A stretch of DNA of 64,000 nucleotides from Thermodesulfobacteriota bacterium (GTDB taxonomy: Bacteria > Desulfobacterota_D > UBA1144), in assembly GCA_029246845.1 (NCBI GenBank), contig JAQWMJ010000006.1, forward strand, positions 22,221 to 86,220, given 5' to 3'. Below are positions 31,126 through 63,594 of this stretch, piece by piece. How positions within the stretch are numbered: the stretch's first letter is position 1; each line of letters begins with the position of its first letter. The notes under the pieces are model-generated. The model made no database searches and had not been told where the DNA came from. It saw only the letters and a program-made list of their open reading frames with translations. A program made the translations under genes and the position numbers.

Positions 31126-32487
31126 TTATTTATCCCAAGGATGCTTCTTCTCGGGTTTTTGACTATATGGATTCTCTTTATCTGGATGGAAATACTTAAA
31201 AGTATTAACATGTTGATCAGTATAAGAACCTGGAGGATAATATTTATCATAAAAATCCAAATCCATATTCTGAGCCTGGAAAACTAACCTCATATACATT
31301 GGGTCGACATAAGCTGGAAAAGATCCATAAGTGTCATGAATATAGTCAGCAACAGACTTAACAATCTCATTTGTTGTATCAGTAGGCCTTGGTGCTTTAA
31401 CTAAGTGTTTGTCTGGCTCTTCATATGGAAAAGGTTTCTTGGAGTCCCAAGCGGCCCATTTATGTTCATCCATTTTATCATATGCATCAGACATTGTTTT
31501 ATAATATGGAGGGCAGTAGCCTTCAAAAATTCCATCTTTACCAACAGGTCTAGTCGGACCAGACTTTGGTTGTTCAAACCTAAAACCTAATCCTTTAAAA
31601 AGTTCAGGATTTGATCCTAGCGTGAACCTAGGTATGAGACCAGTAAATGTCCAACCACCTAACCCAAGAGCTTGAAGAGCTAGAGACATGTTCTGGCAAA
31701 TAAATGCTTGTTCAACATTAAGACCAGTCAGTATTCTAACTTCAAGATCATATAATGACATTTTGACTTCTTCTTTTATTCTTCCAGAAGCAATCCATTT
31801 GTCTTGACCACATGAGCGATTATTTTTTTCATCCCAAATATTAAATGCATAAGTACTACTGCAATAAAGTGTCAATAAATTTAAATACTCCTCAGTTATA
31901 TCAGTAACAGGGATAAACGTTGTAGTACCAGCCTTGTTTGTATTCCATTGGTTAAAGTCAAAAAGACCAGGCATCTTGTCTGGCAAGTTGGCCCTACCGT
32001 CCTCAAGCTTAACAAGCCCTTCTCGATACAATTCTAACAACCTGTCAATTTTATCATTTACATTAAGTCTAAAAAAGACATCAAGTTCTTTATCTTTAGG
32101 TAACATGTTTTTAACATCTACATAATAAAGACCGGAGTCATTAGTGAAAAAAAGCTCTGTACCGTGGTTATTACATGCAGAAGGCCATGTTCTGCCTGTC
32201 CATTGACATAATAAATCAATTCCATTCTCAGGTGGTAAATCTGCAAGGCATAGTCCGGTTAAACCGGTACCTGCCCAAACCAACATAGCTTCTTGAAATT
32301 CAGTTAAAGGAACAGGGTCTATTTTTGACTTATACCCCAGAGAGCTATCTGAAGGGAGCTCCATTCCTAGACCAAACCTACGAGACCTTCTATTAAAAAT
32401 AGCTTCAAACAAAGGGTACTTTAAAGCAGCTTCGTAATTAACCTTTCCATTTCCCTTTCCATTTCCATTTTCATTTTTTTTTGTCAT
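31126..32487 (-). CDS. large (453-aa) nitroreductase-superfamily flavoprotein of unknown function; N-terminal NG/KG repeat and long C-terminal W/Y/P-rich extension
   Basis: Nitroreductase-fold motifs RRSRRFG (res 33-39), WPSACNNHGTELFF (PS..N...E, NfsB/SagB-like) and ALQALGLGGW; the size is about twice a standard nitroreductase; last gene of the rhodanese-sufU string. Confidence 0.5.
   Translation of the reverse strand: MTKKNENGNGKGNGKVNYEAALKYPLFEAIFNRRSRRFGLGMELPSDSSLGYKSKIDPVPLTEFQEAMLVWAGTGLTGLCLADLPPENGIDLLCQWTGRTWPSACNNHGTELFFTNDSGLYYVDVKNMLPKDKELDVFFRLNVNDKIDRLLELYREGLVKLEDGRANLPDKMPGLFDFNQWNTNKAGTTTFIPVTDITEEYLNLLTLYCSSTYAFNIWDEKNNRSCGQDKWIASGRIKEEVKMSLYDLEVRILTGLNVEQAFICQNMSLALQALGLGGWTFTGLIPRFTLGSNPELFKGLGFRFEQPKSGPTRPVGKDGIFEGYCPPYYKTMSDAYDKMDEHKWAAWDSKKPFPYEEPDKHLVKAPRPTDTTNEIVKSVADYIHDTYGSFPAYVDPMYMRLVFQAQNMDLDFYDKYYPPGSYTDQHVNTFKYFHPDKENPYSQKPEKKHPWDK
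32443..32482 (-). repeat. simple-sequence tract at the 5' end of the nitroreductase-like gene: A9 homopolymer (codons 2-5) followed by ~5 imperfect GGAAAT/GGAAAG hexamer repeats
   Basis: Plus strand 32443-32482 ctttccatttccctttccatttccattttcattttttttt; on the coding strand ATG ACA AAA AAA AAT GAA AAT GGA AAT GGA AAG GGA AAT GGA AAG. Confidence 0.7.
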
Positions 32488-59870: not shown

Positions 59871-60494
59871 ATGAAATTTATTATTGTACCTTTTAAAAAC
59901 TTTAAATCAGCTAAAACACGCATGAGAAAAGACTTGTCCGGTCAGGAAACTGAAAAAATTGTTGAAAAAATGCTCATTCATGTTTTACAAGAAGTTTCAA
60001 AGTCACAAATGTCAGACGAAAACTTTATCATTACAAATGACAAAAAAGCTATAAGCATTGCAGCTAAAATTGGAATCAAAATAATTGAGGAAGAAAAGCA
60101 GCTTAGTGAAAGTGTTTCAATTGATTTTGCGTCAAAAATTCTAAAAGAAAAAGGTGCGACGAGCGTCTTAAGAATTCCGGGTGATTTGCCACTTTTAAGC
60201 TTCAAAGATATTGATTATATTTTTAAGAAAGCCATGGAACACAACTCCTGTATAGTAGTCCCCTCCAAAAGTGGTAGTGGCACCAACGCAATGCTTAGAA
60301 CACCACCGGATATTATTCAATCATTTTTTGGAGAAAACAGTTTGCAAAAACATATTAAAGAGTTTGAAGATAAAAAAGTCCAATATAAGATTTTAGAAAA
60401 TGAAAATATTGGACTTGATATAGACTGTCTGAATGACCTTAAACACTTTCGCGAAAGTCACTCCAACAATAGTAAACATAGTCCTATTGGCTGA
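59871..60494 (+). CDS. cofC: 2-phospho-L-lactate (phosphoenolpyruvate) guanylyltransferase, F420 biosynthesis
   Basis: 207 aa; MKFIIVPFK..AK.R, ...VVPSKSGSGTNAML..., FGENSLQKH, matching CofC family motifs; lacks the MobA GG motif. Confidence 0.6.
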   Translation: MKFIIVPFKNFKSAKTRMRKDLSGQETEKIVEKMLIHVLQEVSKSQMSDENFIITNDKKAISIAAKIGIKIIEEEKQLSESVSIDFASKILKEKGATSVLRIPGDLPLLSFKDIDYIFKKAMEHNSCIVVPSKSGSGTNAMLRTPPDIIQSFFGENSLQKHIKEFEDKKVQYKILENENIGLDIDCLNDLKHFRESHSNNSKHSPIG

Positions 60495-60792
60495 TTACTG
60501 CTAAAATGTCTCTTTCTTCGAGGACCATAAGGTCTTTGTTCTCAATATTAACCTCTGCTCCACCAAACTTACTAAAAAGAACTTTGTCGCCTTTTTTAAC
60601 TGTTAGCGGAGTAACATTTCCTTTCTGATCAGCTCTTCCAGACCCAACAGCAACAACTGTTGCCTCAAGTGGCTTTTCTTGAGAACTATCAGGAATGATA
60701 ATACCGCCCTGTGTTGTACTTTCAGCCTCGTTTCTTTCAACTAAAACAAACGCTCCCAAAGGTCTTACAGTTTTTTTCTTAGATTTACCCAT
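60484..60792 (-). CDS. groES: co-chaperonin GroES (10 kDa) with an 8-aa basic N-terminal extension; no groEL adjacent
   Basis: 102 aa; VRPLGAFVLVER...GGIIIPDSS...VVAVGSGR...GDKVLFSKFGG...DILAVI matches GroES throughout. Confidence 0.8.
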   Translation of the reverse strand: MGKSKKKTVRPLGAFVLVERNEAESTTQGGIIIPDSSQEKPLEATVVAVGSGRADQKGNVTPLTVKKGDKVLFSKFGGAEVNIENKDLMVLEERDILAVISQ

Positions 60793-60857
60793 TATAAACT
60801 CCCCTTAAACTTTAACTTACTTATAAAGTAATCATGTTTATTGAACATTCAAGTCAA

Positions 60858-61511
60858 TTAAATAAATTTAATTGAAAATTCATGTTTATGCTTCTTGTTC
60901 ATATTTATTATCAATGGAGTAATAGCCTCTATCATTGAAGAAATTTCGAGTGGTCCAGCATCTATAGCTTTAAGACTTGGCATTTCTTCAGTTAACTTTG
61001 AAACTATTGCTTTGGCTTCATCATCATTACCACAAATAACAACATCATAGTCTAGGGGTTTTTGAAAATTAGCCAAACCTTTTGCAGGAATATTGTGATA
61101 AGCACTTACGACTCTTACTGAATCTGGTAACACGTTTTGAATATCAATAGCTGCGGATCCAGAATCTGGTGGATCATAAGAAACAACTTTTCCAAACTTC
61201 ATAGGGACAACTGGCGAGATCACAATTTGATTTGTGAAAGAGCTGGAAATACCTTCCAAGGTTGATTTTGTGTATTCAGGAGGCAAACATACAACGACTA
61301 CTTCGCTTGCTTTTGCAGCCTCTCCGTTTTCCATACCGAGTATACTTTTATCAACACCTTGCTCTTTTGCTTTCTCATTTATCTCCGCTGCAGCAGTGTC
61401 TGCTTTTTCTTGGGTTCTAGAACCTATTAAAACTTCGTGGCCTGCTTTGGCCCACCTTATTACAAGACCTTCAGCAAAAGACCCTGTTCCACCTAATAAA
61501 CTGATTTTCAT
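60858..61511 (-). CDS. fno: NADPH-dependent F420 reductase (F420H2:NADP+ oxidoreductase)
   Basis: 217 aa; MKISLLGGTGSFAEGL, GHEVLIGSR, VISPVVP, VVICGNDDEAK, IDAGPL, ITPLIINM, SIKFI, all Fno/NpdG family motifs; AAAGGAGA RBS. Confidence 0.75.
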   Translation of the reverse strand: MKISLLGGTGSFAEGLVIRWAKAGHEVLIGSRTQEKADTAAAEINEKAKEQGVDKSILGMENGEAAKASEVVVVCLPPEYTKSTLEGISSSFTNQIVISPVVPMKFGKVVSYDPPDSGSAAIDIQNVLPDSVRVVSAYHNIPAKGLANFQKPLDYDVVICGNDDEAKAIVSKLTEEMPSLKAIDAGPLEISSMIEAITPLIINMNKKHKHEFSIKFI

Positions 61512-61546
61512 TTAATTCTCCTTTAATCAAATTATGATTGGAAATA

Positions 61547-61807
61547 TTATAACAGTTTTTTTAAAACTAGGTTAAGTTTGTTAGAAGAGCAGTCTAGCTC
61601 TAGGGTTTTAACCTTTGATTTAAGGCCACCAACAATAGTTATTTTAGACTTTGGTATTCCTATGAATTCCGAAAGTATCTTAATCAATTCGAGGTTGGAC
61701 TCACCCTTATGTGGAATTGCTGCTACTTTTACTGATAAAACACCTAGTTCAAAACTCAAAACCTCTGACTTTTTTGACCTTGGTTTAACTGATACTAAAA
61801 TTCTCAA
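61547..61807 (-). CDS. DUF167 (YggU / UPF0235) family protein
   Basis: 86 aa; conserved position after yggT in the yggS-proC-yggT-yggU cluster. Confidence 0.7.
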   Translation of the reverse strand: MRILVSVKPRSKKSEVLSFELGVLSVKVAAIPHKGESNLELIKILSEFIGIPKSKITIVGGLKSKVKTLELDCSSNKLNLVLKKLL

Positions 61808-61809
61808 AT

Positions 61810-62100
61810 TTAGAAGGTATAGGCAAGCTGAACCAACGATTTAACCAAAAAGCTTTTTAAAAATTCTACTGCTAATAAAACAACAATAGGTGAAATATCT
61901 ATTCCACCGAGATTTGGCATAGCATTTCGTACTATTGACAAAACCGGCTCCGTTATTCTATATAGAAATTGAAACAAAGTATTGTAAGGATCAGGGTTAA
62001 ACCATGAAATTAATGCTCGAATAATTATTAGCCATACAAAAAGAGAAAGAATTAAGTTTAAAACGTTGGCAATAGCTAAAATTAAATTTGTAATAATCAT
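61810..62100 (-). CDS. yggT: YggT family membrane protein
   Basis: 96 aa, 2 TM; cluster context. Confidence 0.7.
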   Translation of the reverse strand: MIITNLILAIANVLNLILSLFVWLIIIRALISWFNPDPYNTLFQFLYRITEPVLSIVRNAMPNLGGIDISPIVVLLAVEFLKSFLVKSLVQLAYTF

Positions 62101-62101
62101 A

Positions 62102-62917
62102 TCAATTTTTATTCATAATTAGCTTATCACTAATTTTTGCCGATTTCTTAGATGCAGAATCTAGACATTGAACAATGATATTGGTAAATCTTTTATTTTT
62201 CAATAACTTAATACCAGCTTCAGTGGTCCCGCCTGGGGAAGAAACCAACTTAACAAATTTCTGTGGGGACACTTTGGTTGTATTCAAATATGTCACTGCA
62301 CCAAGAATGGTTTCAAAAATTATCTCTCTTACCATCACTTCACCTAAATTTTTAGATTTACCGTAAGCGAGTTGGGCTGCAATGTATTCTGCTAAAAATG
62401 CAGGCCCAGAACCGCTTATAGCCGTGATATAGTCAAAATCTTTTTCTGCTTTTAGCTCAAATGCTTTTCCGGTTGTCTCTATTAAACTTAAAAAAGCTTT
62501 GCGATCCTTATTGGTGCAATGCCTGTTAGCCTTGAAACCAATAACGCCCCTTAATATAAGGCAGGATAAATTCGGCATTGTTCTTATAACTTTTTTCTTT
62601 GGTCCTATTAGTTTTTGAATAAAAGATGTTTTTACACCAGCTGCTATTGAAACAAGAATCTTTCTGGAATTTAACTTCTTCTTTGTTTCTTTTAATACTT
62701 CTGAAATCGCATCAGGTTTAACGCAAAGAAAAATAATTTCAGAATTTTCTACAACACTAATATTTTCAGTTGTTGTTCTAACGTTTTTAAGAGCCCTTAG
62801 CGGTTTTAATCTTTTAGTGTCTACATCAGAACAAATAACCTTGTGTATGCCCTGAGCTAAAAAGCCCCTAATCAAAGATGTTGCCATATTGCCTGTACCT
62901 ATTATTCCAATATTCAT
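62102..62917 (-). CDS. proC: pyrroline-5-carboxylate reductase
   Basis: 271 aa; MNIGIIGTGNMA Rossmann, ProC C-terminal dimerization motifs (SPGGTTEAGI). Confidence 0.85.
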   Translation of the reverse strand: MNIGIIGTGNMATSLIRGFLAQGIHKVICSDVDTKRLKPLRALKNVRTTTENISVVENSEIIFLCVKPDAISEVLKETKKKLNSRKILVSIAAGVKTSFIQKLIGPKKKVIRTMPNLSCLILRGVIGFKANRHCTNKDRKAFLSLIETTGKAFELKAEKDFDYITAISGSGPAFLAEYIAAQLAYGKSKNLGEVMVREIIFETILGAVTYLNTTKVSPQKFVKLVSSPGGTTEAGIKLLKNKRFTNIIVQCLDSASKKSAKISDKLIMNKN

Positions 62918-63594
62918 TTAATGCGTTCTCCAAAAATCTTTGTTCCTACCCTAATTATAGTCGAACCTTCTTCTAAGGCTACCCTATAATCATTGCTCAT
63001 ACCCATTGATAGCTCGAGGCTGGCTCCTAAATTCTTTTCAATATCTAATGACAAATTCTTCATTTTTCTGTAATCCATCCTGCTATATTCTGGGTCTTGT
63101 GAATATTCAGTAATTGTCATAAGTCCTTTTATCTTTAGCCTTTCCAGGATAGAAATACTCGAAGATAATTCTTGAACCTCCTCAATCCTTGCTCCACCTT
63201 TGTTTGGGTCTTCTGAAACATTAACTTGCAAAAGGATGTCTTGAAAAAGGTCTTTTTTTAAACAGAAGTCGTTAATCATTAAAGCCTTTTTAAAGGTGTC
63301 TACTGTATGAACCAAAGTGGCCTTGCCAGCGAAATATTTTATTTTATTTTGTTGGATTTGCCCTATATAGTGCCACCTTATATCTTCTTTGTTTACCATA
63401 GTTGCATTAATTTTATCACGCAACTCTTGTGCATAGTTTTCGCCAAAATCTCTTTGCCCAAGAGAATAAAGATCAAGGATATCTTCAAGCGGTTTTGTTT
63501 TAGACACCGCAACAAGGAGGGTTTTTTGGTTAAGCCTCTTTAGGTGATCATTTAGTTCCTTAACAAAATTTTGATAATTAAGCTGTGTACTCAT
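62914..63594 (-). CDS. yggS: PLP-binding protein YggS (PLP homeostasis, alanine racemase N-domain fold)
   Basis: 226 aa; LLVAVSKTKP PLP-lysine motif. Confidence 0.82.
   Translation of the reverse strand: MSTQLNYQNFVKELNDHLKRLNQKTLLVAVSKTKPLEDILDLYSLGQRDFGENYAQELRDKINATMVNKEDIRWHYIGQIQQNKIKYFAGKATLVHTVDTFKKALMINDFCLKKDLFQDILLQVNVSEDPNKGGARIEEVQELSSSISILERLKIKGLMTITEYSQDPEYSRMDYRKMKNLSLDIEKNLGASLELSMGMSNDYRVALEEGSTIIRVGTKIFGERIK

Follow-up and report, generated by a model that had tools for sequence, protein, structure and literature searches.

The stretch of DNA analysed here is a 64-kb window on contig JAQWMJ010000006.1 of the Thermodesulfobacteriota assembly GCA_029246845.1. It carries two genes predicted to act in the synthesis and the reduction of the deazaflavin cofactor F420, cofC (fbiD) and fno (npdG), together with a lone groES gene (Table 1). 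The cofC and groES genes converge, with an 11-nt overlap of their 3' ends, and fno lies on the same strand as groES at a spacing of 65 nt. Upstream of fno, on the same strand, follow yggU (DUF167), yggT, proC and yggS, which are separated by gaps of at most 35 nt or overlap. The window has a guanine-plus-cytosine (GC) content of 33.1% and is about 96% coding, in agreement with the AT-rich, tightly packed genome of a preliminary description made from the sequence alone.

Table 1. Coordinates of the genes and the promoter-like site discussed in the text (positions within the 64-kb window; aa, amino acids; ORF, open reading frame)
Feature	Position	Strand	Product	Remarks
cofC (fbiD)	59871..60494	+	207 aa	intact ORF
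groES	60484..60792	-	102 aa	intact ORF, no groEL beside it
fno (npdG)	60858..61511	-	217 aa	intact ORF
sigma-70-like match TTAACC-18-TATAAT with TG	61546..61575	-		upstream of fno; weak, suggestive only
yggS-proC-yggT-yggU block	61547..63594	-		context; Pfam/NCBIfam matches DUF167, YGGT, TIGR00112, TIGR00044

Identity of CofC and Fno

The 207-residue protein had been called CofC from the motifs VPFK..AKTR, GSGTNAML and FGENS..KH, all of which are present in the translation, and profile searches upheld the call. The protein scores 129.6 bits with NCBIfam model TIGR03552, for which the curated equivalog cut-off is 105 (residues 4-198 over profile positions 2-192 of 196), and 84.1 bits with Pfam PF01983 (threshold 22, E = 1e-23). 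Among solved structures it matches 7P97 (1e-10), Methanosarcina mazei CofC (2I5E, 1e-9) and Mycobacterium tuberculosis FbiD (6BWG, 6e-8; also 6BWH), all of the same MobA-like family PF01983/TIGR03552. It differs from the characterised CofC/FbiD proteins in being only about 25-30% identical to them, and is a distant member of the family.

In M. tuberculosis FbiD, phosphoenolpyruvate (PEP) and two Mg2+ ions are held by six residues, of which D116, D188 and D190 bind the metals and the substrate phosphate, and T148, G163 and S166 the carboxylate (PMC6450877). Alignments to 6BWG, 7P97 and 2I5E equate these with D105, D183, D185, T138, G154 and S157 of the window protein, the last three by the 6BWG alignment. 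Both the three-aspartate Mg2+/phosphate motif and the Thr/Gly/Ser carboxylate positions of the characterised enzymes are kept; D105 lies within GDLP, D183 and D185 within LDID, and all six residues are invariant in an alignment of 10 clade members. These results support the identification of the protein as CofC, a predicted guanylyltransferase that would activate the lactyl, enolpyruvyl or glyceryl phosphate linker for F420. Whether 2-phospholactate, PEP or 3-phosphoglycerate is the substrate cannot be read from the sequence; the best solved match, 7P97, is a 3-phospho-D-glycerate guanylyltransferase, but the margin is slight (1e-10 as against 1e-9). In a relative with 40% GC, cofC is flanked by genes for an aldehyde dehydrogenase and for a 952-residue flavin adenine dinucleotide-linked oxidase with Fe-S and CCG domains, which resembles glycolate or D-lactate dehydrogenases (L009:6997-12096). 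These neighbours may relate to the supply of lactate or lactaldehyde for a 2-phospholactate route, or their presence may be a coincidence.

The 217-residue protein had been identified as Fno, an F420H2:NADP+ oxidoreductase, from the motifs LLGGTG, GHEVLIGSR, SPVVP, ICGNDDEAK, DAGPL, TPLIINM and IKF, and here too every motif was found in the translation. The score with TIGR01915 is 240.9 bits against a curated cut-off of 149.8 (E = 1e-71), with residues 1-211 spanning profile positions 1-215 of 220. Matches to solved enzymes extend to Archaeoglobus fulgidus Fno (1JAX/1JAY; E = 1.5e-45, 44% identity over 209 aa, residues 1-216 against 1-211) and Thermobifida fusca Fno (5N2I; E = 7.9e-34, 38% identity). 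These two have the length and family model of the window protein and share with it the GGTG dinucleotide-binding motif, S31/R32/K36 and the H133/I135 equivalents, whereas the host differs in belonging to a bacterial candidate class and in having a very AT-rich genome. Residues T9, S31, R32, K36 and H133 of the A. fulgidus enzyme, which we take from the work on 1JAY to be cofactor-site positions, correspond together with I135 to T9, S31, R32, K36, H139 and I141 of the window protein. In five aligned dadabacterial relatives the I135 equivalent is Ile or Leu and the other five positions are unchanged; I135 itself is kinetically important in A. fulgidus Fno (PMC5614548). The identification as Fno/NpdG, a predicted F420:NADP(H) oxidoreductase, is supported by these comparisons.

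Selection on the three genes was assessed from ratios of nonsynonymous to synonymous substitution rates (dN/dS) among marine relatives, applying only comparisons with unsaturated dS. The values are 0.13-0.27 for cofC, against 0.09-0.23 for proC and 0.11-0.20 for yggS, 0.02-0.11 for fno, which is close to the 0.02-0.03 of dnaB, and 0-0.26 for groES. All three genes are under purifying selection and none is decaying.

The low identity of CofC to characterised members, along with weak matches to the MobA, MocA and KdsB models, could mean that the 207-residue protein is a MobA-like enzyme with another substrate. Similarly, PF03807 also spans ProC-type enzymes and is matched by the window's own ProC, and the 217-residue protein could be a STEAP- or ProC-like NADPH oxidoreductase that does not use F420. 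Such a misassignment is considered highly improbable. Both proteins lie above their equivalog cut-offs, whereas the MobA, MocA, KdsB, ProC and prephenate dehydrogenase models remain far below theirs, and the window's ProC is 22% identical to Fno over 87 aa. Moreover, CofC keeps the six FbiD substrate and metal residues, the alignments of Fno to two solved Fno structures run end to end and show the I135 equivalent to be kept, and sister genomes carry a matching cofDEGH operon (see below). The motif agreement in CofC and Fno is far beyond chance.

Host lineage and the remaining F420 genes

The organism was placed from its nearest relatives, synteny, GC content and coding density, and not from an rRNA or marker-gene tree. 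The closest relatives of the window Fno are marine/TARA proteins with 79-93% identity, followed at 57-63% by proteins named as Candidatus (Ca.) Dadabacteria, Ca. Mycalebacterium or Thermodesulfobacteriota; in the NCBI taxonomy Ca. Dadabacteria is a class within Thermodesulfobacteriota. A scan of the GTDB species genomes with the CofC alignment gave matches in 271 species. The best were marine metagenome-assembled genomes (NAT510, 90%; SI054_bin67, 82%; TMED58, 65%; Ca. Dadabacteria UBA1144, 55-68%), the next were soil and aquifer Dadabacteria including CSP1-2 (41-46%), and Acidobacteria-labelled genomes came thereafter (36-41%). The gene order hisG-(5-enolpyruvylshikimate-3-phosphate (EPSP)-synthase-family gene)-prmC-yggS-proC-yggT-yggU-fno is common to the window and the complete genome of Ca. 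Mycalebacterium zealandia (CP046180.1). The yggS-proC-yggT-yggU part precedes fno in CP046180.1 and in all marine relatives, and is a conserved landmark across Dadabacteria. The published pelagic Dadabacteria have genomes of about 1.22 Mb with more than 96% coding sequence and lowered GC (Graham and Tully, PMC8115339), and the GC content and coding density of the window match this description, in support of the placement. Taken together, these comparisons support a streamlined pelagic member of Ca. Dadabacteria. A SurA-like gene in the window, and a TonB-dependent receptor gene beside the cof operon of relatives, suggest that the organism is diderm, which is how the term Gram-negative in the preliminary description appears to hold.

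The search for cofD outside the window started from a distant CofC match in a cofE-cofD-cofC cluster (L012). From this cluster and the solved CofD structures the conserved motif N-x-G-D-D-x4-G-x2-I-x-P-D-x-D-x3-Y was derived, and an AT-biased back-translated probe for it was applied to a metagenome collection. At least 120 matches were obtained, and all 120 of those listed are real CofD genes; the marine dadabacterial cofD, whose motif reads NTSDD..YDV, was absent among the matches listed. Three contigs (L159, L175, L122) share with CSP1-2 the smc-ppiD landmark, which in CSP1-2 lies beside cofC. In L159 and L175, cofD, cofG and cofH stand side by side, a HemQ-like gene is about 59% identical to that of Mycalebacterium, and the CofD proteins retrieve entries labelled at source 'Ca. 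Dadabacteria' and 'bacterium HR37'. Non-marine Dadabacteria thus have cofD, cofG and cofH. The non-marine members (CSP1-2, HR37) are of the same phylum-level lineage as the window, with an orthologous cofC of 41-46% identity (L022-L092) and with fno after the yggS-proC-yggT-yggU block, as in the window. Their cofD adjoins ppiD, followed by cofG and cofH in L159 and L175 and with smc beside ppiD in L122, and in CSP1-2-type genomes (L074, L071, L010) cofC is a few genes from the smc-ppiD pair. These scattered F420 genes near smc-ppiD may be what is left of one ancestral F420 cluster.

A profile of the non-marine CofD was applied to representatives clustered at 50% identity and filtered for an AT-rich amino-acid composition, which yielded P0369. 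One member of its cluster is P0443, a TARA/JGI protein with the name 'LPPG:FO 2-phospho-L-lactate transferase' and a longest contig of 434,262 bp. The corresponding marine contigs (L213-L218) have the order TonB-dependent receptor, cofD (309 aa), cofE (248 aa), cofG (420 aa), cofH (395 aa) and cysE-asd-gap-pgk. CofE scores 228.2 bits (cut-off 180.65), CofG 431.3 (213.35) and CofH 476.6 (374.1), and all three pass. The marine clade thereby differs from non-marine Dadabacteria in having cofE joined with cofD-cofG-cofH in one operon, as it differs from them in the loss of groEL beside cofC and the adjacent position of fno. The marine CofD (L213:10001-10930, L221:7082-8008) has NTSDD..YDV where the other bacterial CofDs compared have NTGDD..(F/Y)GL, and between the two marine subclades CofD is only 54% identical, as against 83% for CofH.

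The operon was related to the cofC locus by way of L007, a marine relative with 79% identity to the window in Fno. In exact-sequence look-ups, Fno, GroES, CofC, DnaB and KorA of L007 each gave a longest contig of 434,262 bp, and the same figure was obtained for CofD and CofG of L213 and for a near-identical CofE variant (same 90% cluster). Eight proteins with an identical longest contig would be very unlikely unless they were on one contig. A 178-kb contig of a second marine subclade (L221) has the same cofD-cofE-cofG-cofH operon in the same neighbourhood. The identity per protein is 42-84% between L221 and L213 and 38-83% between the window and L007; these ranges match, so that the operon has persisted over a divergence equal in depth to the split between the window and L007. 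Marine CofG and CofH are 53-57% and 67-68% identical, respectively, to their non-marine dadabacterial counterparts (L159, L175) and at most 46% identical to all others compared, which argues for vertical descent within the phylum. By extension from the two marine sister subclades, the cofDEGH operon is predicted to be present elsewhere in the window's own genome. This is where the preliminary description had expected the four genes; the operon was found in the relatives, and its presence in the window's own genome is extrapolated from them.

Two other sets of contigs were considered as members of the window lineage and rejected. The low-GC 'Group A' CofD contigs (L139, L100 and others) have a leucyl-tRNA synthetase of 929 aa that is 41-50% identical to that of the window, and the marine 'Group B' contigs (L166, L167, L211) an Fno of 38.6-39.5% identity. 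Tetranucleotide correlation was dominated by GC and gave no discrimination in assigning the low-GC CofD contigs. The Group B contigs, with 33-34% GC, carry a complete fno-cofE-cofD-cofC cluster beside a luciferase-like gene (L166:1071-5937, L167, L211:4173-8053), and the accessions of L166 and L167 have the appearance of TARA assemblies. The luciferase-like gene scores 164 bits, just under the cut-off of 167 of the F420-dependent model TIGR03619. With an Fno only about 39% identical to that of the window, this lineage is not Dadabacteria. The very low-GC contigs L139, L100, L106, L195 and L202, with the 929-aa leucyl-tRNA synthetase, encode beside CofD a CofE-like protein of about 470 aa, some two times as long as the single-domain type; they come from a different organism, probably an archaeon. 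Several low-GC CofD representatives are named at source Lokiarchaeota, Promethearchaeota or Heimdallarchaeota, and some of the low-GC ones Asgard or Thermoproteota, names that were not tied to Group A. Lokiarchaeota have a two-domain FbiB homolog (PMC8498797), which would fit the Asgard-labelled CofD representatives.

The lone groES gene

The 102-residue protein scores 113.4 bits with PF00166 (E = 5e-33) and 108.9 bits with NF001531 (cut-off 96). Its mobile loop GGIIIP aligns with GGIVL of Escherichia coli, and it has a short Lys-rich N-terminal extension. These features make GroES an ordinary Cpn10 that retains its mobile loop, as in the canonical bacterial groES-groEL operon. The locus differs from that operon in that groES has no groEL downstream and is met there instead by the 3' end of the convergent cofC.

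Comparison of the loci suggested an origin for this arrangement. In the 11 marine low-GC loci, without exception, cofC is convergent with groES-fno and no groEL lies within 10 kb of groES. Six non-marine dadabacterial loci (L010, L029, L050, L055, L071 and L074, the last being CSP1-2) have cofC convergent with a full groES-groEL operon, and four further partial non-marine loci have cofC convergent with groES-groEL. In L071, fno is found about 7 kb past groES. The landmark genes MOFRL-dnaB are upstream of cofC in L050 and L055, and prmC, the EPSP-synthase-family gene and hisG are also present in L050; in the window this gene set is packed more tightly. In the simplest reading, groEL would have been deleted from the site next to cofC, or moved, in a marine ancestor, and further deletions would have drawn fno beside groES to give the compact cofC/groES-fno block. 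The lone marine groES would then be a leftover of a groES-groEL operon with no special tie to F420. Since groES keeps the GroEL-binding loop and is under purifying selection, groEL is expected elsewhere in the genome. The preliminary description had spoken of an orphan groES wedged between F420 genes: the window indeed holds no groEL, but groES is better described as the leftover of the operon found beside cofC in non-marine relatives.

This leads to the question whether groES has been recruited into a fno-groES unit, for instance for co-regulation of the chaperonin and F420 redox state under oxidative or light stress. The two genes are co-directional and 65 nt apart, the arrangement is found in 11 of 11 marine loci, and no terminator-like site lies between them in a sigma-70 promoter and terminator scan, a scan that was itself not above its shuffled background. 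Nevertheless, the ancestry explains the placement fully, as non-marine groES-groEL is already beside cofC with fno several kb away or elsewhere, and in a genome of 96% coding density nearly every gene abuts its neighbour, so that adjacency is little informative. Recruitment is judged improbable, and the leftover of a former operon remains the preferred account of groES. As judged from strand and spacing, groES is probably co-transcribed with fno and the upstream yggS-proC-yggT-yggU genes. The same scan gave 10 promoter-like sites in the region against a shuffled expectation of 11.7; because this is no excess over background, the promoter match upstream of fno is no evidence of function.

Two features of the surroundings were observed in addition. 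The yggU gene (61547-61807, minus strand; Pfam 65.7 bits) has a TTG start, and in several public assemblies of the same strain (L001, L002, L004) an ORF of 88-101 aa without any family is called opposite to it (window 61578-61844, plus strand), probably a gene-calling error. In the relatives L007 and L008, yggU has an ATG start and is called correctly. The dnaA and dnaN genes, the usual markers of the replication-origin region, follow prmC, the EPSP-synthase-family gene and hisG at about 4-8 kb past the window's right end (L003:2288-4960, L007:2275-5000), which puts the fno-groES-cofC block within about 10 kb of dnaA/dnaN.

The predicted F420 system and its significance

Taken as a whole, the sequence data very probably describe a streamlined pelagic dadabacterium with a working cofC and fno for F420, with cofDEGH elsewhere in its genome and with groES as the leftover of a groES-groEL operon. 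Several results weigh against this interpretation. No cofD, cofE, cofG or cofH was found in the 64-kb window, where cofC is the sole biosynthesis gene. The marine CofD, 37-41% identical to the CofDs compared, reaches 222.8 bits and stays below the TIGR01819 cut-off of 257.45 (E = 5e-66; the YvcK-like alternative reaches 47). The link between L007 and L213 rests on the equal figure of 434,262 bp and not on the sequence of the contig itself, and none of the contigs listed for the window's own subclade has the same size as a cof-operon contig. The idea that cofDEGH and cofC stand some 25 kb apart on a single TARA scaffold was refuted, as the DNA upstream of korA proved to be nadB-glnD-cobO-methyltransferase-aminotransferase-leuS-udg; the DNA upstream of korA in the L007 lineage (L219) is the same as that of the window and collinear over more than 20 kb. 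No groEL match was obtained in the window or in about 0.6 Mb of (redundant) marine dadabacterial DNA, a small part of a genome of 1.0-1.2 Mb. Lastly, no F420-dependent enzyme besides Fno was seen in the window or the marine loci, again a small part of the genome, where the sole explicit search was for luciferase-like proteins with two queries.

These results leave room for a partial pathway, in which the window's species has lost cofDEGH and keeps cofC and fno for another purpose, or in which Fno acts on FO or F420 scavenged from seawater. Streamlined genomes frequently lose biosynthetic genes, the operon was demonstrated in sister subclades and not in the window's own genome, and an external supply is conceivable, as cyanobacteria and unicellular algae independently produce FO for use in DNA photolyases (PMC8498797). 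However, cofC is under purifying selection across the marine clade, including the nearest relatives of the window, and purified CofC/FbiD is inactive in vitro without CofD/FbiA (PMC6450877, PMC8498797), so that cofC alone would have no known use. Together with the conservation of the operon and its neighbourhood over a divergence as deep as that between the window and L007, this makes a partial pathway unlikely.

With a complete pathway as the preferred reading, the steps would follow those reviewed for F420 biosynthesis (PMC8498797). CofG and CofH would make the deazaflavin FO, CofC would condense GTP with a three-carbon phospho-acid (2-phospholactate, PEP or 3-phosphoglycerate), CofD would transfer the activated group to FO, and CofE would add gamma-glutamates. 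Fno would exchange hydride between NADPH and F420 and, if the hydride is taken to pass from NADPH to F420, as in other bacteria (PMC8498797), would most likely keep F420 reduced. The marine CofE is of the single-domain type without the FbiB reductase domain. Should CofC use PEP, a separate FbiE-like reductase would be needed, but none for 2-phospholactate or 3-phosphoglycerate. It is also imaginable, if rather unlikely, that the abundant pelagic Dadabacteria have all six F420 genes in about 1.1 Mb and that their divergent CofC and CofD and single-domain CofE, without an FbiB-type reductase, make a non-canonical F420 (of the 3-phosphoglycerate type or with another linker). This would then serve an unrecognised, near-essential F420-dependent enzyme in heterotrophs of the oligotrophic surface ocean.

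A conserved 453-residue ORF between a NifU-like gene and an acyl-CoA ligase gene (window 31126-32487, minus strand) has no Pfam, NCBIfam or PDB sequence match, and the same gene is found in the same context on other marine contigs (L229-L231). Its N terminus, FNRRSRRFG, resembles the start of the nitroreductase superfamily, the class of the dehydro-F420 reductases FbiB-C and FbiE. In an attempt to assess it as an FbiE-like reductase, a single-sequence AlphaFold model was unusable, with a mean predicted local distance difference test score (pLDDT) of 32.

F420 is mostly discussed for methanogens, actinobacteria and soil bacteria, and the preliminary description had regarded its presence in such a genome as being of ecological interest. 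That interest is moderate, and the occurrence less surprising than it had seemed: Dadabacteria are already among the candidate phyla listed as encoding F420 biosynthesis genes and as predicted producers (Grinter and Greening 2021, PMC8498797), and the NCBI annotation pipeline already names CofC, GroES and Fno of the window (window proteins MDG2005774-MDG2005794). With the gene calls public and the phylum on record as a predicted producer, the finding is of modest practical value. No paper linking the marine Dadabacteria clade to F420 was found in the literature searched, and the main text of the marine Dadabacteria paper makes no mention of cofactor, flavin, photolyase or chaperonin (PMC8115339). 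The present analysis adds the connection with the marine cofDEGH operon and the history of the lone groES, and it appears modestly new that a genome of about 1.1 Mb keeps the whole six-gene F420 system. A cosmopolitan heterotroph of the ocean, whose genome is among the smallest of free-living organisms, appears to spend about 0.5% of it on making and recycling F420, which implies an important role of the cofactor in pelagic Dadabacteria and would add them to the likely deazaflavin producers in seawater.

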